This document shows, one piece after another, positions 50,709-59,561 of a stretch of DNA of 64,000 nucleotides. The number at the start of each line of letters is the position of its first letter. Position 1 is the first letter of the stretch. The stretch lies in NCBI RefSeq assembly GCF_003018235.1, contig NZ_CP027437.1, one strand, 5' to 3'. The translations under genes and the position numbers were made by a program. This DNA comes from Escherichia coli (lineage in GTDB: Bacteria > Pseudomonadota > Gammaproteobacteria > Enterobacterales > Enterobacteriaceae). The notes under the pieces were generated by a model, which did not search any database, was not told the DNA's origin, and was given only the letters and a program-made list of their open reading frames with translations.

Positions 50709-50984
50709 TCACTTCTGCGGGTAGTTGCGCCATACTGCTTTACCAATACCAGCTATCCCCATTTGTTTTTCAGTGCGATTAACTGACCTTTTCAGAGCGC
50801 CTAAATCATCCGGCGGCTCCGGTGGCCTCTGTGCCTTCCTGGAACATTCCTGCCGTCGCATTGCCACCTGTGCGCGTTCCTTGTCTGTCTCCACCAGCAT
50901 CATCACTTCACCCCATCGCGCCGCCGCCCTCCTGTAAAATCCTTTCGCCTCGAGTTCCTCCGCTATACGGTCATGTACCATCAT
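50709..50984 (-). CDS. PerC-family transcriptional regulator-like protein
   Basis: 91 aa. The N-terminal ...AEELEAKGFYRRAAARWGEVM... matches the PerC/Pch signature (ELE.KG.WRRAA.RW..V) as I recall it. The start overlaps the stop of the upstream recombinase. Confidence 0.6.
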   Translation of the reverse strand: MMVHDRIAEELEAKGFYRRAAARWGEVMMLVETDKERAQVAMRRQECSRKAQRPPEPPDDLGALKRSVNRTEKQMGIAGIGKAVWRNYPQK

Positions 50985-51994
50985 TCACCACCTCCCGCAG
51001 ATGGCGATAAGCTGGCTTTGCCTCCAAGTGGATTAAACCTTATCGCCTCTGTCAGAAAATCCGGCGCAAAATGCGCGTAAACCATTGTCTGTTGTATGCT
51101 CGCGTGCCCCAGTATCCTTTGCAGTGTGATTATATTCCCCCCGTTCATCATGAAATGTGTCGCGAATGTGTGCCGTAATACGTGGGTGGCCTGGCCTTTT
51201 GGTAAGTCCGGTTTTACTGACTTGATGACCTCCCTGAACTCCAGATAATCCACATCAAACAACTGTCCCTTTTTACCTCTCGTTACAAGTTCCAGAACGT
51301 CATCAGACACCGGAACAGCTCGCGCCCGTCCGTTCTTCGTCTCCGTAAACATTACCTTGTTACTGACTATATTTTCCCGTCGTAGCGTCGATGACTCCCC
51401 ATAACGCGCCCCCGTCGAAAGACACAAAACAGCCAGCGCGAGACAGTCGCCTTTGGCAATATTCAGTAAATGATTAACCTCATCATCACCAAGAAAACTC
51501 ATAGCCTTGTTTGGTGCTTTCAGCTTGCGTAATCCACTCAAAGGGTTTTCACCGTGATACATACCGCATTCGATTAGCCCCCTGAACATTCCTGATATAA
51601 CCGACAAATCACGGTTAACAGTCAACGGACTAAGGCCGCATCCCAGCTTGTCGGCTCTGTATTCCATGAGCATTGCGCGGGTTATGTTGCAGATTCGTGG
51701 ATCCCCCATTTCACGGATAACCTTCATCATGCGCATAAACGATTGTTCGCCGTATTCCTCCGATCTTCCGATAAACTCCATCCATAAGTTAGCCAGATCA
51801 GATAACAGGCGAATATCTGCGGCGCGTGACTCCCAGGGCTTATTATGACAATGAAGCAGTATGTATTTTTCGTAATCACGGGCTTTTGTCTGCGAGGGAA
51901 AAATCTTTCTTATCCGTCGCCCGTAAGCGCCATTTGGCCTTACGTCAACCAGCCAGCGACCATCCTCACACTTCCTTATCGCCATGCTCCACAC
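50981..51994 (-). CDS. Tyrosine recombinase (phage integrase family), second recombinase of the island
   Basis: 337 aa. The catalytic pattern is present: TGARYGE (Arg), HVLRHTFATH (H-x-x-R) and LGHASIQQTMVYAHF (His...Tyr). Confidence 0.8.
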   Translation of the reverse strand: MWSMAIRKCEDGRWLVDVRPNGAYGRRIRKIFPSQTKARDYEKYILLHCHNKPWESRAADIRLLSDLANLWMEFIGRSEEYGEQSFMRMMKVIREMGDPRICNITRAMLMEYRADKLGCGLSPLTVNRDLSVISGMFRGLIECGMYHGENPLSGLRKLKAPNKAMSFLGDDEVNHLLNIAKGDCLALAVLCLSTGARYGESSTLRRENIVSNKVMFTETKNGRARAVPVSDDVLELVTRGKKGQLFDVDYLEFREVIKSVKPDLPKGQATHVLRHTFATHFMMNGGNIITLQRILGHASIQQTMVYAHFAPDFLTEAIRFNPLGGKASLSPSAGGGE

Positions 51995-52226
51995 CCTTAA
52001 CGTTGATGGTTGTTACCTGTTCCGCTTCGGCTATCTCCCGTTCGGTCAGCGTGGCAAAGTTTGCCGCCGCTGTGGTCATGAATGCGCTTATCAGTTCGGG
52101 ATGTGCTTTCGCGTATCCTTCTCCCGTGTTGCGGTCTATCGTTCTGATTGCCACCTTTAAGGCGTGCTCTGTCATGTCTAATGCGCGATATTTTGGCGCT
52201 GCCTTATCTCTGGTTTTTCTGGTCAT
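51966..52226 (-). CDS. Hypothetical protein (86 aa)
   Basis: ORF immediately downstream of the iteron region. Its 3' end overlaps the recombinase start. No family recognised. Confidence 0.45.
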   Translation of the reverse strand: MTRKTRDKAAPKYRALDMTEHALKVAIRTIDRNTGEGYAKAHPELISAFMTTAAANFATLTEREIAEAEQVTTINVKGVEHGDKEV

Positions 52227-52424
52227 TCCTCACCACTCCTCACTTTTACTCCTCACTTTTTGTTATTCCTCGCCTGCTCCTCACCTGTTTTTTTTGCTTC
52301 TGTAATGCGTTGTTTTGCAATGTATTTTTTATTCCTCACTTTTTGACCTATATACAGGTGAGAAAGTGAGGAGTAGCGCTGATTTTTTGTTAAATTACTC
52401 GCTACCCTCACTTTTACTCCTCAC
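52227..52424. repeat. Iteron array / putative replication origin of the island
   Basis: At least 8 direct copies of (T/C)CCTCAC(TTTT), starting at 52227, 52237, 52250, 52267 (variant), 52278, 52333, 52405 (variant) and 52418. One inverted copy (GTGAGGA) lies at 52366. They flank an AT-rich core and fill the whole intergenic gap after the helicase gene. Confidence 0.7.
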
Positions 52425-52427
52425 TTT

Positions 52428-53828
52428 TTACAGTGGGTGCACATCATCGCCATCAATAGCGATTACGCCGTCACCTTCCAGCTTGTACAGCCAGCGCCGG
52501 AAATTTTTCATCTCATACCCCAGCTTTTTCATATCGTCGCGGAGAAGGGCGATAGTGCACGCCTCCCCGTGTGCTGTCCTCGTTCTGATGCACTGCCATA
52601 GCGCGGCGTGATTCTCCGTCTTGTTTCCGGCCTCCTCGATGCGCTCCAGTTCAACGGGTGGGCGCGGTTTATCCACAACCACCAGCGACGTGATTAACTC
52701 CCCGTCAGCGTCGGTAAAAAGCTCCACCACACGTAAATCGTATGCGGCCTCTTTCAGTTCCTCCGCGTCCTTCATTTTGGTGCAGGAGATAACCAGGGCT
52801 TCACAGTCCGCACCTTCACGGCGAATACGGTATTCAGCGTCCAGAGATGCACGAAATGCACTGGAACCACGCGCCCCTTTCGTCTCATCCTTGCCGGAAT
52901 GGTGAACCACCAGCACCGTGGCCCCTGTGCGTCGTTTCAGTTCGTCACATCCACGGATAAACGCCCCCATGTCACGGGAATCATTTTCATCATTGCCGCC
53001 AAAGCAACGCGCCAGCGTATCCAGAATAATCATGCGTACAGGTTTACCCGTTTCCCGCTCCACCTGGCTGGCTGCGATAACCATTTCATCAACATCAAGC
53101 GGGGCCGCCGGAAAAATGGGACGGTTTACCAGATACAGATTTTTCACCTGCTCACCGTGCACAACCTCCCAGGCTTTTACACGACGTGGAACGCCGATAC
53201 CGCCTTCACCAACCACATAGAGAACCGCACCATGTGCAACCCTGCGGCCTCCCCAGTAGCGACCTGTGGAAACGTGACACGCCCACGATCCGGCAAGGAA
53301 TGATTTATAGGAACCGCTCGCCCCGTATATGCTGCATAGCGATACCGCCGGAATAATTCCCTTAACCACGTAATCAAGTTGCGTGTCGTATCCGGCAGAA
53401 CCAATGCTCATCGGTAGTTTGGTTTTCCGCTGGTGGCTTTTTTCTTCCTCCTGCGCTTTACCGCGCTCCCGTTCCAGATATTCGCGCCAGTTCTCCCGCT
53501 TCTGGCTGTGCATCCCATCTGGGTAATAATTCGCATCCCGTACACCTGCTGCCGCCAGCTTTTGCGCTATGGCATTAATGCTCGATGGCTTGATATGGCC
53601 TGCCCTGTACAGACGGACGCAATAGCGGCCCTCGTCGATGATTCTCAGGTCTGGCAGTTCAGCCAGTTGATCATCAGCCAGCACAACGGGAGGCACATTA
53701 TCGCCAGCAAGTCGCCCGTCCTGCTCCTGCCACTGCTTCGCGTGTGCCCAGGCATCACTACCCGCAAAAATAATGACTTCTGTCATTTTGTCGTAAGGCT
53801 GTTTTCTTAAGTTCGGTGCGCTCTTCAT
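52428..53828 (-). CDS. Replication protein, RepA/DnaB-like (AAA_25-type RecA-fold) helicase with extra N- and C-terminal domains
   Basis: 466 aa with a P-loop-like YGASGSYKSF, Walker B VRMIILDTLARCF and a VLVVHHSGKD motif typical of RepA-like helicases. It is adjacent to the iterons. Confidence 0.65.
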   Translation of the reverse strand: MKSAPNLRKQPYDKMTEVIIFAGSDAWAHAKQWQEQDGRLAGDNVPPVVLADDQLAELPDLRIIDEGRYCVRLYRAGHIKPSSINAIAQKLAAAGVRDANYYPDGMHSQKRENWREYLERERGKAQEEEKSHQRKTKLPMSIGSAGYDTQLDYVVKGIIPAVSLCSIYGASGSYKSFLAGSWACHVSTGRYWGGRRVAHGAVLYVVGEGGIGVPRRVKAWEVVHGEQVKNLYLVNRPIFPAAPLDVDEMVIAASQVERETGKPVRMIILDTLARCFGGNDENDSRDMGAFIRGCDELKRRTGATVLVVHHSGKDETKGARGSSAFRASLDAEYRIRREGADCEALVISCTKMKDAEELKEAAYDLRVVELFTDADGELITSLVVVDKPRPPVELERIEEAGNKTENHAALWQCIRTRTAHGEACTIALLRDDMKKLGYEMKNFRRWLYKLEGDGVIAIDGDDVHPL

Positions 53829-54121
53829 TTGCCTTTTCTCCCTCTGGCTATCTGGTTGCGTAACTCCGCTATGTGCTGTGCTATCGTTCCTGAATCATCA
53901 CAGCAATATTTCTTTTCCTTCAGAGGCGTAAAATCCTTCTCAAATTGCAACCGGAACATCACATTCTCAAATAAATATCCAGAACGTATAAAAGTAATAA
54001 ATGTGCTGTTAACTCTCGTCACTGTCACATAATTACCGTCACCATCCAGATAAATATCACCTTTAATAATTTCAGGGCGAGGAAGGCCGCTGGCAGTTGC
54101 GCCAGTATTTTTCTTTTTCAT
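53825..54121 (-). CDS. Hypothetical protein (98 aa)
   Basis: ORF with an ATGA overlap to the helicase start. No family recognised. Confidence 0.5.
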   Translation of the reverse strand: MKKKNTGATASGLPRPEIIKGDIYLDGDGNYVTVTRVNSTFITFIRSGYLFENVMFRLQFEKDFTPLKEKKYCCDDSGTIAQHIAELRNQIARGRKGK

Positions 54122-54137
54122 GGTATTTACCTTTCTG

Positions 54138-54419
54138 TTATTCGTCGTTCTGAATAAAACGTTGTTCTCTTATTTCAGAAAGTATCCTGTAAACATTCTT
54201 ATCACTTACCACTTGATGATAATCATCATCCTCAATAAAACACATCAGCGCCTTATTACGGATATATATTTCTCTGGAAAGAAACTGTATCGCCGCGACT
54301 GCCCTTTCTTCTGTAATTCCGTTCATTGACTCACGTTCAATAATAATATTAAGTGCGGCGGATGCGTCTTCCAGTTCAATAAGGTAAGCAGCGAGGTTAT
54401 TTTTTATTCCATTAGACAT
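54138..54419 (-). CDS. Hypothetical protein (93 aa)
   Basis: ORF in the operon between the icd-like gene and the 98-aa ORF. No family recognised. Confidence 0.5.
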   Translation of the reverse strand: MSNGIKNNLAAYLIELEDASAALNIIIERESMNGITEERAVAAIQFLSREIYIRNKALMCFIEDDDYHQVVSDKNVYRILSEIREQRFIQNDE

Positions 54420-54615
54420 GGCTCACCCCCTGACAGATTTTTGCAGCGAATACAGCAACACAACCGGACGGGCAAAGGTTACGCGCTTCGCGTTCCGTCC
54501 AGGCGGTTACGTGGATGATTTGATGGTCTGACGCGCCAAAGGCAATAAAGCGCCAGGTGAATTTATTCAGGTTGTGCGAGTCCCGCCCTTGCGGGTGTGT
54601 GATATGATTTAACAT
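54412..54615 (-). CDS. Icd-like (P4-type host cell division inhibitor-like) small protein, 67 aa
   Basis: MLNHITHPQGRDSHNLNKFTWRFIAFGASDHQIIHVTAWTEREARNLCP... resembles Icd-like proteins of P4-family elements. An SD (GAGG) lies 6 nt before the ATG at 54615. The 353-aa ORF in the track is an upstream read-through of this frame. Confidence 0.6.
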   Translation of the reverse strand: MLNHITHPQGRDSHNLNKFTWRFIAFGASDHQIIHVTAWTEREARNLCPSGCVAVFAAKICQGVSHV

Positions 54616-54712
54616 AGCTACCTCGATACTATTGCTATCGTTGGTGGTTAGAAGCCTGTGGGTGTTAGCGGCACCTACGGGCTTCGCAGTTTCTGAACCT
54701 TGAACACTCAAG

Positions 54713-54794
54713 GTGTAAGACACAACATAAAACAACAGTGTCTTACACGTCAACCCTTTAAAATAGTTTTTTTTCGTGTATATTGTCTTACACC
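54713..54794. promoter_or_regulatory. Divergent promoter/operator region with three GTGTCTTACAC operators
   Basis: The sites are GTGTAAGACAC (54713-54723, inverted), GTGTCTTACAC (54738-54748) and TGTCTTACAC (54785-54794). The leftward promoter TTGACG-18-TATGTT has one operator in its spacer and one at about +1. The rightward promoter has TATATT (54779-54784) abutting the third operator. Confidence 0.55.
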
Positions 54795-54814
54795 AAAAAC
54801 ATGAGGGGTTAGAC

Positions 54815-55000
54815 ATGGCAACAGGTCCAAAGAATGCAAAATCACAATCTGTAACTGCACGTATTGCCCATGAAATTATTGAAGGCATGGAAAACGTGAA
54901 AGAAGATGGCGAAAGTACAGGGCAGTTTATAAGCGCAGCCATGCGTGGCGAGATCAAACGCCGCCAACGGAAAAAAACCAAAGAATCAGATAAGGAATAA
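54815..55000 (+). CDS. Small ribbon-helix-helix-like protein (61 aa), candidate island repressor
   Basis: An SD (GAGGGG) lies 6 nt before the ATG at 54815. SQSVTARIAHEIIEGMENVKEDGESTGQFISAAMRGEI fits an Arc/CopG-type strand-helix-helix fold, followed by a basic tail. It is one of only two rightward ORFs I call in the island (with the 47-aa ORF downstream). Confidence 0.5.
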   Translation: MATGPKNAKSQSVTARIAHEIIEGMENVKEDGESTGQFISAAMRGEIKRRQRKKTKESDKE

Positions 55001-55003
55001 CTT

Positions 55004-55147
55004 ATGCAGCAAGTACTATACTGGCTTGGCTCTTTGTTTTTATTTGCTTTCCTCCTGGGAAATTGCATCAGCAATGAACACGTCAGTAATGAGCGTGTAT
55101 GCAGGAGTGATGAAAAAAAGATTCCACGCCTCATATACAATGATTGA
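55004..55147 (+). CDS. Possible 47-aa hydrophobic peptide
   Basis: ATG 4 nt after the preceding stop. The sequence is MQQVLYWLGSLFLFAFLLGNCISNEHVSNERVCRSDEKKIPRLIYND, with one TM or signal-like segment. It is too short for the ORF track. Confidence 0.3.
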   Translation: MQQVLYWLGSLFLFAFLLGNCISNEHVSNERVCRSDEKKIPRLIYND

Positions 55148-55298
55148 TTAGCTCGTGCAGCACTAAAGCAACGCAAGGCCAAAGAGCAGGAATAGCCCAC
55201 CAGCAAGCCAGCGCACTGATCACATTGCCCACCAGCCGCAAATGTGGCATTGTTGGCTATGCTCATGCGTTGGGGATAACGTGTAGCTTGTGTCGAGG

Positions 55299-55326
55299 GG
55301 CCACCGTAGCGGGTGGCCTTTGTTTT
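55299..55326 (+). terminator. Rho-independent terminator of the rightward RHH operon
   Basis: GGCCACC-GTAGCG-GGTGGCC followed by TTTGTTTT. Confidence 0.6.
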
Positions 55327-55422
55327 GCCTGTTATCCGGCAATTGTGGCGCTTCGCCACACGGTTGATATAATTCCCCTGCACTGATCCATTTTTTTCGC
55401 AGCAGGTTAATTGTTCGCAAGG

Positions 55423-55447
55423 GCGCTCCGGCAACGGGGCGCTTTTT
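55423..55447 (+). terminator. Rho-independent terminator (plus strand), convergent with alpA
   Basis: GCGCTCCG-GCAA-CGGGGCGC followed by TTTTT. No T-run follows it on the minus strand. Confidence 0.55.
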
Positions 55448-55477
55448 GTTATGTTCATCGCGTTACGCCTCACACCA

Positions 55478-55684
55478 TTACGCAGCCGTTCCGCGCGCTT
55501 CTTCCTCGCGCTCTTTCAGCCAGGCCAGCACTTCATCTTCATACCAGCCAACACGACGCAGACCGATTTTGAAGCCTTTCGGGAATTTTCCGGCGTTGAT
55601 CATGTCCTGTAGCGAACTGTCCGCCTTGATGCGAAGAATATTTTTTACTTCCTGACGGGTGAGTATTTTTCTGATTACTTCCAT
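55478..55684 (-). CDS. alpA: AlpA-family (MerR-like HTH_17) transcriptional regulator / excisionase-like protein
   Basis: 68 aa. ILTRQEVKNILRIKADSSLQDMINAGKFPKGFKIGLRRVGWYEDEVLAWL is the typical AlpA/Xis HTH pattern. Confidence 0.8.
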   Translation of the reverse strand: MEVIRKILTRQEVKNILRIKADSSLQDMINAGKFPKGFKIGLRRVGWYEDEVLAWLKEREEEARGTAA

Positions 55685-55815
55685 CGTGTTTTACCTCATT
55701 AATCCGGCGTGTTCCGGTGATAAATACGGTAAAACAGGGAAGGGCGGGAAAAACAGTACCTACCGTTTTAAAACGGTACCCACTGTTTTTTATCTCGTTG
55801 ATTGTGCTTCTTTTT

Positions 55816-55846
55816 GCAAAAAATAGCGACCGCAAGGGGCCGCTAT
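55816..55846 (-). terminator. Rho-independent terminator after the 77-aa ORF
   Basis: The minus strand reads ATAGCGGCC-CCTTGC-GGTCGCTAT followed by TTTTTTG, 6 nt after the stop. Confidence 0.65.
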
Positions 55847-55851
55847 TGTGA

Positions 55852-56085
55852 TTACCGTCTCCACTTCTTAGGTCGCCCACCGCATTTAAGGCTGGTGGGC
55901 CTCAGCACCTTGTCGATGCTTTCAGCCAGATTTTTCGATACGCCACGTGAGCGCAAAAAACTGACTACCTCGTGTTTTGTGGGGGCTGTTGATTTGTCTT
56001 CCGGATCGTACGTTGACCAGAATTCACGGCTTACCAGTACAGCCAGTTCAAGCCCGTCACAAGTGCCATTGATGTTTGTTTGCAT
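55852..56085 (-). CDS. Hypothetical protein (77 aa), possible HTH and basic C-terminal tail
   Basis: ORF between int and alpA with its own terminator. The HEVVSFLRSRGVSKNLAESI segment is HTH-like, and the C-terminus is GGRPKKWRR. Confidence 0.5.
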   Translation of the reverse strand: MQTNINGTCDGLELAVLVSREFWSTYDPEDKSTAPTKHEVVSFLRSRGVSKNLAESIDKVLRPTSLKCGGRPKKWRR

Positions 56086-56189
56086 GTTGATGCTCTCTTC
56101 ATGTTTGGCGGCCTTTGGGGGTAACGAGATAATGCAACTATACGACGGTTTTACATGGTTTTCATCGTTTTTGCTGGTTTTGTGTACAG

Positions 56190-57431
56190 TTATACCGCAC
56201 GGATACCCCTTTTACCACCAGCAAGGGTAACGCCCGTTGCCGCTGCCTCAACAAATTCCCCCCACCAGCGCATCAGCACAATGCGTTTTTCCAGGTAGTT
56301 ACTGCGGTTGTAGGCTCTCCTTACTTCGTTGGTGTCCACGTGGGCCAGTGCGGCCTCGATTACGTCCGGCTCGAATCCTTCCTCGTTTGCTGCTGTGCTG
56401 AATATGGCGCGTAATCCATGAGACACCAGCACGCCAGCGAACCCCATGCGCCGTAATGCTGCGTTGGCGGTCTGGCTGTTCATCGGCTGGCGTGGGTCTT
56501 TCAGGCTCGGGAAAACATGCTCGCGGTGGTGGCTGATTGGTTTCATGGCCTCCAGCACTGCCATAGCCTGACCGCAAAGCGGGATAACGTGATCACGTCG
56601 CATCTTCATACGTCCGGCTGGTATCGTCCATTGTTGCTCGTCCAGGTCGATTTCTTCCCAGCGTGCTGACGATGCCTCAACAGGACGGGTTACGGTAAGT
56701 AGCTGCCACTCAATCAGTAGTCTTGTCTGCCGTTCTGTTGCCGATACGGATAAAGCCCGCATAAGCTCCGGTAGCTGCTCGGGGCGGATTGTTGGCATAT
56801 GTTTTTTTACTGGGGTGGGGAAGGCCTTGCGCACGTTTGTAGCCGGATTGGTATCAATCATCCCGCTGTTGGCGGCGTAATCCATAACTTCATTGATGCG
56901 CTGTAAAACCCGCTTGAGCGTTTCCAGGTTGCCGCGTTCCTTGATGGGGGTGAGTATCTCCACGAACCTGCGGGCGGTGAGGGTGTCTACTGGCGTGTCA
57001 CCGATGAACGGGAATACATATTTCTCCAGCGATCTCCATATGTCTTTAATTGTGTTGGGTGCAAGATTCTGGCTGATTTTCACCTGGTACCATGCCGCTG
57101 CTACATTTTCGAACGTGTTGCCCTGTCTCCGTTCCTCTGCTTCGCGTTTTCGTCGCTCGTGTTCCTGTGGGTCGGTGCCGGAAGAAATTAACGTCCTGTA
57201 CTCGCTACGGCGTTTTCTGGCATCAGCCAAGGAAACATCATCAAGCGATCCAAAACTCAGCAATATTCTTTTTTTGTCCAATGGGCGGTAGTAGGAAAAT
57301 CGCCAGAGTTTTGATCCAGACGGTTTGACCAGGAGAAAAAGCCCTCCGCCGTCCTGTAGGGTGTACTCCTTTTCCGCTGGTCTGGCTGCTTTGATCTGCA
57401 CTGTGGTTAATGGGGTTGTTTTTCTCGCCAT
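56190..57431 (-). CDS. int: P4-type tyrosine integrase (DUF4102 N-terminal arm-binding domain)
   Basis: The N-terminus MARKTTPLTTVQIKAARPAEKEYTLQDGGGLFLLVKPSGSKLWRFSYY is the classic P4-integrase-family start. The catalytic region is ...HGLRAIFSTAANE...AALAHVDTNEVRRAYNRSNY. The ORF extends to 57449. Confidence 0.9.
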   Translation of the reverse strand: MARKTTPLTTVQIKAARPAEKEYTLQDGGGLFLLVKPSGSKLWRFSYYRPLDKKRILLSFGSLDDVSLADARKRRSEYRTLISSGTDPQEHERRKREAEERRQGNTFENVAAAWYQVKISQNLAPNTIKDIWRSLEKYVFPFIGDTPVDTLTARRFVEILTPIKERGNLETLKRVLQRINEVMDYAANSGMIDTNPATNVRKAFPTPVKKHMPTIRPEQLPELMRALSVSATERQTRLLIEWQLLTVTRPVEASSARWEEIDLDEQQWTIPAGRMKMRRDHVIPLCGQAMAVLEAMKPISHHREHVFPSLKDPRQPMNSQTANAALRRMGFAGVLVSHGLRAIFSTAANEEGFEPDVIEAALAHVDTNEVRRAYNRSNYLEKRIVLMRWWGEFVEAAATGVTLAGGKRGIRAV

Positions 57432-57464
57432 ATGTCTATGATTCCACACGAAAAAATGGGGTTT

Positions 57465-57519
57465 TAGTTATACGGCTTTAGTTATACGTCAGCCCGTATA
57501 ACTAAACGTATAACTAAAA
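57465..57519. repeat. Right-end cluster of four CGTATAAC units (two inverted, two direct), including the 26-bp copy of the left-end repeat
   Basis: TAGTTATACG occurs at 57465 and 57479. CCGTATAACTAAACGTATAACTAAAA lies at 57494-57519. Confidence 0.7.
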
Positions 57520-57570
57520 AATCCGGCTGATAGCTTATAAATCCGGTGATGTCCGGTGACTAAAAACCAT

Positions 57571-57602
57571 AAAAAAACCCGCCAATCAAGTGATTAGCGG
57601 GC
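57571..57602 (-). terminator. Rho-independent terminator downstream of proL
   Basis: The minus strand reads GCCCGC-TAATCACTTGATTG-GCGGG followed by TTTTTTT, 48 nt after the tRNA 3' end. Confidence 0.6.
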
Positions 57603-57649
57603 TTTTCGTGTCTGAAACTGTTATTTCCGGTGGTATCCGGTGGGCGATT

Positions 57650-57726
57650 TGGTCGGCACGAGAGGATTTGAACCTCCGACCCCCGACACCCCATGACGGT
57701 GCGCTACCAGGCTGCGCTACGTGCCG
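57650..57726 (-). tRNA. proL: tRNA-Pro (anticodon GGG)
   Basis: The minus strand reads CGGCACGTAGCGCAGCCTGGTAGCGCACCGTCATGGGGTGTCGGGGGTCGGAGGTTCAAATCCTCTCGTGCCGACCA. This gives a 7-bp acceptor stem, D arm, anticodon loop AUGGGGU, TPsiC arm GGAGG/CCTCT and an encoded CCA. Confidence 0.95.
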
Positions 57727-57800
57727 ACTCGTGGCTGCTAATACTACCGTTTTCCACACCGATTGCAAGTAAGATATTTTGCTAACTGATTTATAATTAA

Positions 57801-59561
57801 TCAGTTAGCGATAAAACGCTTCTCGTCTGTCAGTACTTGCAATAACAAACTTAACTGTGGTTTTTCATCTTTCACTCTTTCACCACGTAAGTTGTAAGTA
57901 CGGTATTTACCGTTATTGTTCAGCACCAGCGTCTTTTTCGGGGTGGTAATTGCCAGCGTATCGTTATCCGCGGCGGTAACCCAGTAATGACGGCGTTGAG
58001 GGTTGAACAAATCCTGACCTTGCGAATATTCGCTGGCAGGTGTGCTGACATGTAGCAGGCGTTGCATCAGCGTCGTCATCAGATCGGTATGATCAGTCAG
58101 AGCATTAATACGCTGCGCCGGCGTACCTGGCCAGTGAATCACTAATGGTACCTGCAGATGACCGTGGGACCAGTCAAAGGTTTCTTCCTCTTCGCTCAGC
58201 GGAATACCCCGACCGGCAGTGATAATCACCACCGTATTGTCCAGTTTGCCAGAATCACGCAGTGCATTGAGCACGCGGTTGATTTGGTCATCGACATTGC
58301 CTGCCGCCCGGCTATATTTCCGTGCAAATGCCTGCTGATTGCTGTCGTCAATGTTAGTGCCATTGAAAGAGATCCACGAGAACCAGCGGTTATCTTCTTG
58401 TGCGTAGCGGCCCAGCCAGTTGATCCACTGCGTGGCGGTCTGCTCGTCGGATTGGGTGCGTACGCTCGGCATCGAGAAATCTGACAACAATGCCTGGCGA
58501 TACAGCGGGCTGGTAAAGCCATCTGATGAGAATAACCCCAGCTGATAGCCTTGCTGATTAAGCGCAGTAATTAATGCCGCAGGCGTACGGGTCGACAGAA
58601 TACCGTCCATATAGCTCGGCGAGATGCCATAGAACAGGCCAAAGATGCCGTTGTCTGTAGTGTTGCCGGAGCTCATATGGCGCGTGAACGAAATATTTTG
58701 CTCAGCAAAACCTGCCAGCGCAGGCATCTGCTTCTCGAAGCGTGAGTAGTTCAGGCCATCGACAGTAATCAACAGCACATTCTGCCCGGTGCCCATATCG
58801 CGATAGCGCAGTTCGCTTAACGGATACTGAACGGAAACGGCGTCTGGATTACCTTGCTCAATGAGACGGCGTTGATACTCCTGCGCATCAAGCAGACCAT
58901 GCTTCTCAAGAAAACGTCGCGCCGTCATCGGGTACGAAAGCGGTAGGTTAGCGCGCTGCATGGTGATCGGGCGATAGAAGTTGGCATCGGCCCAGATATA
59001 CACCACATGCGAGGCGATAAAGGCGATAAATAAGAATGCGGCCAGCGGGCGCGCGAAGCGTCGACGACGCGTCAGGCTTCGCAGCTTTTGCCAGCTCCAC
59101 GTCGCAAACACCAGTTCAAGCAATAAAATAACCGGCACGCTGATGAACATCAGCTGCCAGTCGCGCGCCATCTCATTTTCGTCTGGGTTGATAACCAGTT
59201 GCCAGACGATGGGATTAAGATGGAGATGGAAACGAGTAAAGACTTCGCTATCGATCAGTAATAGCGTCATTCCCGCCGTTGCCAGAATGACGGACAAAAA
59301 CCTCATCAGCCTCTGGGAGCCGACGATAAAGGTCAGCGGGAAGAGGATCAGCAAGTAGGTGGCGAACACCAGGAAGCTGAAATGGCCGATAATGCTTACG
59401 TAGGAATAAATGCGACCAGCAAGCGTTGTCGGCCAGTCGGCGATAAACAGGTAACGGCTGCCAATGACGAGCGAAAGCAGAATATTGAACAGTGCAAACC
59501 AGTGCCCCCAACTGACCATCTGGGAGACTTTTTCACGGTAGCGCTGACGATGAGTTACCAT
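57801..59561 (-). CDS. yejM: Inner membrane protein YejM (PbgA/LapC), sulfatase-like periplasmic domain
   Basis: 586 aa with 5 N-terminal TM segments and an alkaline-phosphatase-superfamily domain. Confidence 0.9.
   Translation of the reverse strand: MVTHRQRYREKVSQMVSWGHWFALFNILLSLVIGSRYLFIADWPTTLAGRIYSYVSIIGHFSFLVFATYLLILFPLTFIVGSQRLMRFLSVILATAGMTLLLIDSEVFTRFHLHLNPIVWQLVINPDENEMARDWQLMFISVPVILLLELVFATWSWQKLRSLTRRRRFARPLAAFLFIAFIASHVVYIWADANFYRPITMQRANLPLSYPMTARRFLEKHGLLDAQEYQRRLIEQGNPDAVSVQYPLSELRYRDMGTGQNVLLITVDGLNYSRFEKQMPALAGFAEQNISFTRHMSSGNTTDNGIFGLFYGISPSYMDGILSTRTPAALITALNQQGYQLGLFSSDGFTSPLYRQALLSDFSMPSVRTQSDEQTATQWINWLGRYAQEDNRWFSWISFNGTNIDDSNQQAFARKYSRAAGNVDDQINRVLNALRDSGKLDNTVVIITAGRGIPLSEEEETFDWSHGHLQVPLVIHWPGTPAQRINALTDHTDLMTTLMQRLLHVSTPASEYSQGQDLFNPQRRHYWVTAADNDTLAITTPKKTLVLNNNGKYRTYNLRGERVKDEKPQLSLLLQVLTDEKRFIAN

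Follow-up and report, generated by a model that had tools for sequence, protein, structure and literature searches.

How satellites of phages are kept silent in the chromosomes of Gram-negative bacteria is the question raised by a roughly 10-kb island within a 64-kb stretch of Escherichia coli DNA (the window). The paper that defined Gram-negative phage-inducible chromosomal islands (PICIs) found only an activator, AlpA, and called a global repressor unclear (PMC6092414), so that the premise of the original prediction for this locus, namely that such islands are held by known repressors, was inaccurate; later work described C4/CI-like immunity RNAs in some Gram-negative PICIs (PMC10111431). 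In the window island, an intergenic region (54619-54814) separates a leftward Icd-like gene (54412-54618) from a rightward open reading frame (ORF) of 61 amino acids (aa; 54815-55000). We propose, with a probability of about three in four, that the product of this ORF, a predicted ribbon-helix-helix (RHH) protein, acts as an autoregulated repressor of the Icd-like/replication operon and is encoded on an exchangeable, immunity-like cassette.

Three operator-like sites overlap two predicted divergent promoters

The intergenic region had been described as containing three copies of an 11-mer, one of them inverted. The location, the clustering and the inversion were all recovered; the identity was not complete. 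The 11-mer GTGTCTTACAC is exact only twice (54713-54723, minus strand; 54738-54748, plus strand), and the third copy, TTGTCTTACAC (54783-54793), matches it at 10 of 11 positions. What is exact in all three is the 10-mer TGTCTTACAC (54713-54722, minus; 54739-54748, plus; 54784-54793, plus), of which the whole 64 kb holds no further exact copy. The third copy is imperfect because it overlaps a -10 hexamer, its first two bases being the last two of TATATT. All three sites have the form GTG-N5-CAC, with palindromic flanks and an asymmetric core. Within the island there is no other copy with two or fewer mismatches, the nearest such copy lying at 57608, in the flank between the int gene and a tRNA gene. 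A scan of 54300-55800 for sigma-70-like sites returned exactly two, one per strand, and these are the two promoters that had been named beforehand. The elements of the proposed switch are as follows.

54713-54723, minus strand: operator O1, GTGTCTTACAC, directly after the P_L -10 element and over the expected start site (near 54717)
54738-54748, plus strand: operator O2, GTGTCTTACAC, within the P_L spacer, its last base being the first base of the -35 element
54783-54793, plus strand: operator O3, TTGTCTTACAC, overlapping the last two bases of the P_R -10 element and the expected start site (near 54791)
54753-54724, minus strand: predicted promoter P_L, TTGACG-18-TATGTT, which would drive the Icd-like/replication operon
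54757-54784, plus strand: predicted promoter P_R, TTTAAA-16-TATATT, which would drive the 61-aa gene
52428-54618, minus strand: operon under P_L, comprising the Icd-like gene (54412-54618), a 93-aa ORF, a DUF4222 protein and a RepA-type helicase (52428-53828)
54815-55000, plus strand: gene for the 61-aa YlcI/YnfO-family RHH protein, the candidate repressor

The geometry is the one originally outlined, with one site in the P_L spacer, one at the P_L start and one at the P_R -10 element. Sites that overlap core elements of both divergent promoters are the layout of an autoregulated repressor, and would imply both repression of the replication operon and autoregulation, as had been suggested. O3 is probably the weakest of the three sites. 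The A/T-rich segment 54754-54777 would sit at the UP-element position of P_L. In 300 first-order Markov simulations of the window, no 10-mer occurred three times within 100 bp on either strand; the real window contains three such clusters, all of them in the island (the operators, the iterons after repA and the sites adjoining the integrase gene).

The 61-aa protein is predicted to adopt a ribbon-helix-helix layout

The 61-aa ORF is preceded by a Shine-Dalgarno sequence, GAGGGG, 6 nt upstream, and its MATG start is kept in homologues. Against the NCBIfam family NF041551 (YlcI/YnfO) the protein scores 65.3 bits (cut-off 30; E 3.8e-18), its residues 9-50 spanning the whole 42-position model, and RefSeq gives homologues the same label. 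It also matches two PHROGs of unknown function. A Pfam scan at E <= 0.1 returned only a sub-threshold match to SspO, no solved structure was matched by sequence, and Foldseek gave no matches.

The assignment to the RHH type, made at first from the sequence pattern, is borne out by an AlphaFold model and by its similarity to solved structures. The model, built as a monomer from a 40-sequence alignment (predicted local distance difference test score 87.6), shows residues 8-18 as extended, a helix at 19-28, a turn at G32-E33-S34-T35 and a second helix at 35-60, a predicted layout that is that of an RHH protein. The strand appears only as an extended segment because it needs a partner chain to come into register. 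A predicted dimer sheet in the major groove gains indirect support from the operator cores, which track alternate strand residues as described below. Structural comparison with solved RHH proteins gave similarity values of 6.0 for the Rv0298 antitoxin, 5.4 for CopA_SO, 4.9 for AmrZ, 4.6 for the HicB RHH domain, 4.5 for omega, 4.3 for TacA and 4.2 for Arc, with TraM, NikR and TraY ranking below Arc. The predicted DNA-facing strand positions 12, 14 and 16 are S, T and R, and the C-terminus is a basic helix tail lacking any extra toxin-binding domain.

A separate observation concerns this tail. The motif E-I-K-R-R-x-R (residues 46-52; window 54950-54970) is almost invariant across the specificity types described below, only column 51 varying (Q or L), and forms the longest conserved run of the family. 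Gripping DNA, joining dimers and serving as the docking site of an inducer are candidate roles.

Operator cores and strand residues change together

We next compared the locus with its relatives. A pattern scan of one genome per species yielded 51 loci across the Enterobacterales, including Escherichia, Citrobacter, Kluyvera, Enterobacter, Raoultella, Kosakonia, Yersinia, Serratia, Pectobacterium, Hafnia, Xenorhabdus, Proteus and other genera. An upstream plan of GTG-N5-CAC sites at fixed offsets from the ATG is shared by 49 of the 51. The O2-equivalent starts at -77 and abuts a TTGAC/TTGAA -35 element on the opposite strand, the O3-equivalent starts at -32 and is fused to a TATACT/TATATT -10 element, and the O1-equivalent lies at -99 to -113 in either orientation. 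The T-run upstream of the P_R -10 element is also conserved. In these loci the third site almost never begins with G, since that base belongs to the -10 hexamer, and the largest group additionally shows a single-base departure in the core of this site (ACATA versus AAATA). This pattern suggests that the third site is a deliberately weaker, autoregulatory one.

The plan is constant, and the 5-bp core varies with the strand sequence of the protein. At least 15 matched protein/site specificities were distinguished, among them the following (strand sequence, then operator).

SQSVTARI or SQSITVRV: GTGTCTTACAC
SQMTTVRI: GTGAAATACAC
SQSLKSRV or SQALKARV: GTGTGGCCCAC
SKKLEARV: GTGTCAGCCAC
SKRFDVRV: GTGTCGGACAC
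SQQLNARF: GTGAATCGCAC
SLQVSVRL: GTGAACACCAC
SQKMSARV: CTGGCACCCAC, the third site having CCCAT
SQKIQARA: CTGGATTCCAG
SQQIVSRV: GTGCATGCCAC
SQTVAARV: GTGTTGAACAC

Of the 2.28 bits of entropy in column 12, 2.24 are shared with the operator core, and for column 14 the figure is 2.37 of 2.37 bits. R16 is invariant; columns 13, 15 and 17 are mostly hydrophobic or small, and columns 12 and 14 vary strongly and contain mainly polar or charged residues. Such an alternation is what a strand presenting residues 12, 14 and 16 to the DNA would show. We controlled for relatedness by comparing proteins of similar identity outside the strand. At 60-75% identity, loci with the same residues 12/14 differed on average at 0.41 of the 5 core bases and those with different residues at 3.58; at 75-90% identity the corresponding values were 0.17 and 3.2. 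Judged from these sequence comparisons, relatedness does not explain the covariation. Xenorhabdus proteins that are 69-77% identical to the window protein have both S12/T14 and the core TCTTA in common with it. This joint variation of site sequence and predicted DNA-facing residues, seen across 50 loci, makes the 61-aa protein the leading candidate reader of the three sites.

The switch moves between satellite backbones as a cassette

Two natural swaps separate the protein from its neighbouring genes. The unit concerned comprises the following parts.

54541-55450: exchangeable cassette, containing the first codons of the Icd-like gene, the leader hairpin, the three operators, the repressor gene, the 47-aa ORF and the terminators
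54651-54685, minus strand: stem-loop in the 5′ leader of the P_L transcript, an inverted repeat followed by UCUAACCAC
55004-55147, plus strand: 47-aa hydrophobic ORF after the repressor gene
55296-55321 and 55419-55446, plus strand: two terminator-like hairpins from a terminator scan, which would end the rightward transcript; neither has a minus-strand T-run

The first swap is seen in the island at the same tRNA gene of E. coli SCU-111. Int, AlpA, RepA and the capsid protein are 100% identical between the two islands and the Icd-like protein is 98% identical, yet the sequence from about 54655 to about 55215 of the window is replaced. The SCU-111 protein is 67% identical to that of the window and carries the strand SQALKARV; its first two sites are GTGTGGCCCAC and its third is a degenerate CTGTCCCCCAC. 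It follows that AlpA, Int, the Icd-like protein and RepA cannot read the sites, and these four were rejected as candidates.

The second swap is the converse. A satellite of E. coli 06-00048 (locus L054, NZ_CP015229.1 1161916-1178226) shares with the window only 54541-55450 (911 bp, 97.7% identity), and the 311-bp segment surrounding the switch is 100% identical. Its backbone differs, having another integrase, a Bro-N protein and SSB. This satellite lies inside a prophage, with a truncated gene for the terminase large subunit on one side and the portal, protease and capsid genes on the other, a helper-embedded configuration. The same genome has a second YlcI-type place.

Taken together, these comparisons indicate that a 0.9-kb cassette moves as a unit among satellite backbones, much as the immunity regions of lambdoid phages do. 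Of 5426 complete E. coli genomes, 583 (approximately 11%) carry relatives of the cassette, and approximately 60 of these 583 have the specificity of the window. A tblastn search of 50,697 phage genomes returned no homologue, and that collection therefore lends no support to a helper phage carrying a repressor of the same type.

The leader stem-loop shows compensatory changes in 6 of its 9 pairs across 35 loci and matches no Rfam family; it could act in processing or stability, or as the target of a trans-acting RNA.

We also observed that in seven genomes carrying two or three YlcI-type modules (loci L008/L019/L042, L011/L044, L033/L045, L026/L041, L015/L035, L021/L048 and L018/L036) the operator types always differ within the genome. 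This is consistent with selection against shared immunity; by our estimate it would arise by chance about one time in five, and it was not counted as evidence.

Alternative readings

The strongest competing explanation keeps the protein on its sites and changes its timing: it would be a transient regulator of the Arc/Cro/Cox type made after induction, not a maintenance repressor. We regard this as unlikely, and the evidence bearing on it is mixed. Site geometry alone is silent on timing, and RHH proteins such as P22 Arc do act transiently. Arc and Cro, however, are the first genes of the operons that they damp, whereas the 61-aa gene stands alone, faces away from the operon it would control and has its own, apparently autoregulated promoter, which is the maintenance layout of P22 Mnt, SaPI (Staphylococcus aureus pathogenicity island) Stl and lambda CI. 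The swapping of the cassette into many specificities is likewise how an immunity determinant behaves. A transient role would agree with the description of Gram-negative PICIs as AlpA-activated rather than derepressed (PMC6092414).

The true immunity function could also reside in a second, RNA-based layer. In the relatives L056 (5245-5446) and L054 (7488-7692), both on the minus strand, the Rfam models C4, c4-a1b1 and isrK do match, so that C4 antisense RNA, the a1b1 targets and isrK lie directly downstream of the site-controlled promoter. In the window, the same models gave no match at E <= 1 in 47000-58000, and a CI-type immunity RNA was likewise not found there; no other immunity function is visible in the window island. 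The arrangement in the relatives suggests that the switch heads an immI-like operon of the P1 c4-icd-ant type and that protein and RNA controls are stacked in some islands.

That the repeats are read by another protein (AlpA, the integrase, the Icd-like protein, RepA or a helper protein) or are iterons or packaging signals, the small ORF being unrelated to them, is in our view very improbable. Satellites do carry iterons and recombinase arm sites, the window island has both, and linked genes can covary with nearby DNA by descent alone. The iterons and the integrase-side repeats of this island are, however, other sequences located elsewhere. The fixed offsets of the sites to the promoter hexamers and to the ATG speak against another reader, as does the covariation, which falls mainly at every second strand position and persists when relatedness is controlled for. 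The SCU-111 swap removes the four island proteins, and a helper protein could not explain at least 15 matched pairs inside the cassette.

Still less credible is a toxin-antitoxin pair, in which the 61-aa protein would be an RHH antitoxin, the 47-aa ORF its toxin and the repeats solely their autoregulatory operator. The toxin partner is not conserved: a search of 5.8 billion proteins turned up just two close relatives of the 47-aa ORF, and of 52 related loci about half lack any ORF of at least 30 aa downstream of the gene, the others having unrelated ORFs there. We rejected a type II pair for this reason. The protein has only its basic tail where an antitoxin would have a toxin-binding domain, and two of the three sites are on the opposite promoter, that of the replication operon. 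The 47-aa ORF, which is left unannotated in the identical cassette of E. coli 06-00048, is possibly a cargo gene and not a conserved partner.

Finally, although the region is AT-rich and promoter-like hexamers are common in such DNA, a chance or low-complexity origin of the repeats is practically negligible, since none of the 300 simulations gave such a cluster and the position and form of the sites are kept while their sequence changes, at 49 loci in many genera.

Several points weigh against an autoregulated repressor that reads these sites. Two promoter hits are not above the number in shuffled sequence (mean 2.3), which makes the scan alone weak evidence; the promoters carry weight through the constant position that they and the repeats keep relative to each other at 49 other loci. 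The spacings between sites (22-25 or 35 bp, and 45 bp) are out of helical phase, and neither cooperative binding nor looping is claimed for that reason. Covariation within a jointly moving cassette leaves room for another cassette-borne factor, the only other conserved parts being the hairpin of the leader and the start of the Icd-like coding sequence. Among the related loci, L056 has its third site adjoining the P_L -35 element and not on the P_R -10 element, L032 has no recognisable sites, and the start codon of L014 is ambiguous. The Pfam counterpart of the family, DUF3950, under which K-12 YlcI is labelled, did not match the protein at E <= 0.1; the satellite clade is outside the reach of that model. 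A literature search found no data from binding assays, footprinting, reporters or mapping of transcript starts. EcCICFT073, the E. coli PICI that has been characterised, is turned on by AlpA (PMC6092414). Lastly, the O157:H7 EDL933-type island at roxA has no such protein, is fully unidirectional and carries a long Icd-like pseudogene at that place, so that the protein is not a universal PICI repressor.

Proposed mechanism

We nevertheless favour the autoregulated repressor, and propose a model that proceeds from the sequence features, fold prediction, covariation and swaps to binding, repression, an order of occupancy and an effect on replication that we infer from them. At each 11-bp GTG-N5-CAC site, the N-terminal strands of an RHH dimer would pair and enter the major groove, residues 12 and 14 and the invariant R16 reading the 5-bp core and conserved parts of the protein reading the GTG/CAC flanks. 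Dimers on O2 (-35 element and spacer) and O1 (start site) would block P_L and silence the operon for the Icd-like protein, the DUF4222 protein and RepA, and with P_L shut the island would be kept from replicating. O3, one or two bases off the consensus, would fill last and cap repressor synthesis at a level that keeps P_L shut.

Release could come about in two ways. In EcCICFT073, AlpA switches on the life cycle and helpers activate alpA (PMC6092414). In the window island, helper-activated alpA transcription might continue leftward, antisense to the repressor gene, and pass over the operators, which is conceivable because there is no minus-strand terminator signal between alpA and the cassette. 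We weakly favour this option; a helper-encoded antirepressor, as for Stl, is equally open.

The island that carries the switch

The element is a phage satellite of the Gram-negative PICI type, approximately 10 kb long and inserted at a tRNA-Pro gene (57650-57726) that adjoins it. The assignment is made from this size and location and from gene content: int and alpA lie together at one end, and a replication module followed by iterons, PerC and a capsid gene are also present. Published Gram-negative PICIs are ordered as an integration, a variable, a replication and a late zone (PMC10111431), and the gene order of the window island agrees with this. From the tRNA end, it reads as follows.

Leftward: integrase; 77-aa ORF; AlpA-type helix-turn-helix protein
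Rightward, between alpA and the Icd-like gene: 61-aa gene and 47-aa ORF
Leftward: Icd-like; 93-aa ORF; DUF4222; RepA/AAA_25 helicase; 86-aa ORF
Leftward, last genes: second tyrosine recombinase; PerC; 75-aa ORF; ClpP-protease/major-capsid fusion

That only two genes point rightward, as originally called, agrees with the RefSeq annotation of the near-identical SCU-111 island (a YlcI/YnfO gene and one hypothetical). In the P_L operon, the ORF ends overlap or abut; the profile matches are to NF033153 (60.7 bits), DUF4222 and AAA_25, and the RefSeq names come from the SCU-111 island.

Directly downstream of repA, 52238-52429 contains three copies of CCTCACTTTTACTCCTCACTTTTT, two exact and one 75% identical, at intervals of 83-85 bp, and a long inverted repeat lies between the copies; these iterons are probably the replication origin of the island. 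Between the int start and tRNA-Pro (57463-57519), CGTATAACTAAA occurs four times in both orientations, and one further copy is found approximately 10.1 kb to the left (47392-47417). These repeats are likely integrase arm-type sites that mark both island ends.

Other features of the island were also noted. A second tyrosine recombinase of 337 aa (50981-51994, minus strand) lies between the replication genes and perC, a position that holds an SSB gene in the related islands L054, L055 and L056; two integrases in one 10-kb satellite are unusual. The only virion gene encodes a 631-aa fusion of a ClpP-like prohead protease and a major capsid protein (48170-50065, minus strand). A repeat of about 90 nt, 84-85% identical between its copies, lies directly after the capsid-fusion gene (48054-48142) and directly after perC (50603-50690), and may be a shared terminator or a recombination scar.

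Outside the island, positions 1-45100 are ordinary chromosome, collinear with that of E. coli SCU-111 from yfaA to narP, and no helper prophage is evident within the 64-kb window. Near narP, approximately 1 kb (45100-46105) and approximately 0.6 kb (46558-47191) have no counterpart in the SCU-111 chromosome, which has a decayed autotransporter gene at that spot.

Relation to known systems

An autoregulated RHH repressor at divergent promoters is a well-known kind of system. In the immI region of P22, Mnt and Arc are RHH repressors of the ant operon. The switch described here resembles immI in having a small RHH protein transcribed away from the operon that it would control, operators overlapping close divergent promoters, an apparently autoregulated repressor gene and an operon of the immI class; this operon begins here with the Icd-like gene, to which relatives add C4 RNA. 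Among the plasmid RHH proteins CopG, omega and ParG, omega binds 7-bp heptads that follow one another in runs, and CopG recognises a 13-bp element and spreads from it cooperatively. The sites of the present switch are instead isolated 11-mers with palindromic GTG/CAC flanks, and the genetic context differs. The K-12 proteins YlcI (DLP12) and YnfO (Qin) belong to the same NCBIfam family and have the same strand-helix-helix pattern. The ylcI gene, however, is beside the cos/nohD end of a lambdoid prophage with no Icd-like operon adjacent, and tblastn did not link it to the satellite genes, being too distant; as an instance of the same switch it was set aside as uninformative.

The candidate repressor is similar to SaPI Stl and to Rpr of Gram-positive PICIs in being a lone divergent regulator between the integration genes and the replication module (PMC6092414), and in having many allelic specificities. 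Stl and Rpr are larger, helix-turn-helix proteins, unlike the 61-aa RHH protein, and Stl is lifted by a bound helper-phage protein, whereas the 61-aa protein has no known partner of this kind. The Gram-negative islands also differ in having alpA, which encodes an activator, between int and the gene. With the CI RNA of P4 and the C4 RNA of P1 (c4-icd-ant) the switch has in common the control of an early leftward operon, here with an Icd-like first gene, and, in the case of P4, a second upstream promoter that a helper could activate (alpA here, P_LL in P4; PMC10111431 in part). The repressors of P4 and P1 differ in being RNAs that act by termination or by a block of translation, where here a protein would act at the promoter.

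We found no functional study of YlcI/YnfO proteins and none of an RHH repressor in Gram-negative satellites, in a literature search that covered subscription journals thinly and whose silence is not proof of absence. A 2026 survey lists YlcI/YnfO only as a ‘prophage-associated protein’ in capsid-forming PICIs (cf-PICIs) of Enterobacter (PMC13612085). The functional proposal for the family, the recognition table, the cassette behaviour and the place of the system in Gram-negative satellites appear to be new.

Implications for satellite immunity

More tentatively, and with less than even confidence, we suggest that the satellite YlcI/YnfO clade supplies the missing master (immunity) repressor of a large subset of Gram-negative satellites. 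If so, deletion of the gene would set off helper-independent replication of the island, and the at least 15 specificities would define immunity groups that determine which satellites coexist and which exclude each other. In these islands YlcI/YnfO would then take the place of the C4/CI RNA immunity known from P1 and P4, or form a further layer on top of it, and induction would proceed via a helper-encoded antirepressor or alpA-driven antisense transcription across the cassette.

The switch thus offers a concrete and cheaply testable candidate for how Gram-negative phage-inducible islands stay silent, and a first functional proposal for a domain-of-unknown-function family. The recognition table, which relates residues 12 and 14 to the 5-bp core, could predict which satellites share immunity, and builders of synthetic circuits could draw from it short repressor/operator pairs that are potentially orthogonal. 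The two swaps, for their part, show that the regulatory regions of satellites are shuffled as cassettes, like the immunity regions of phages.

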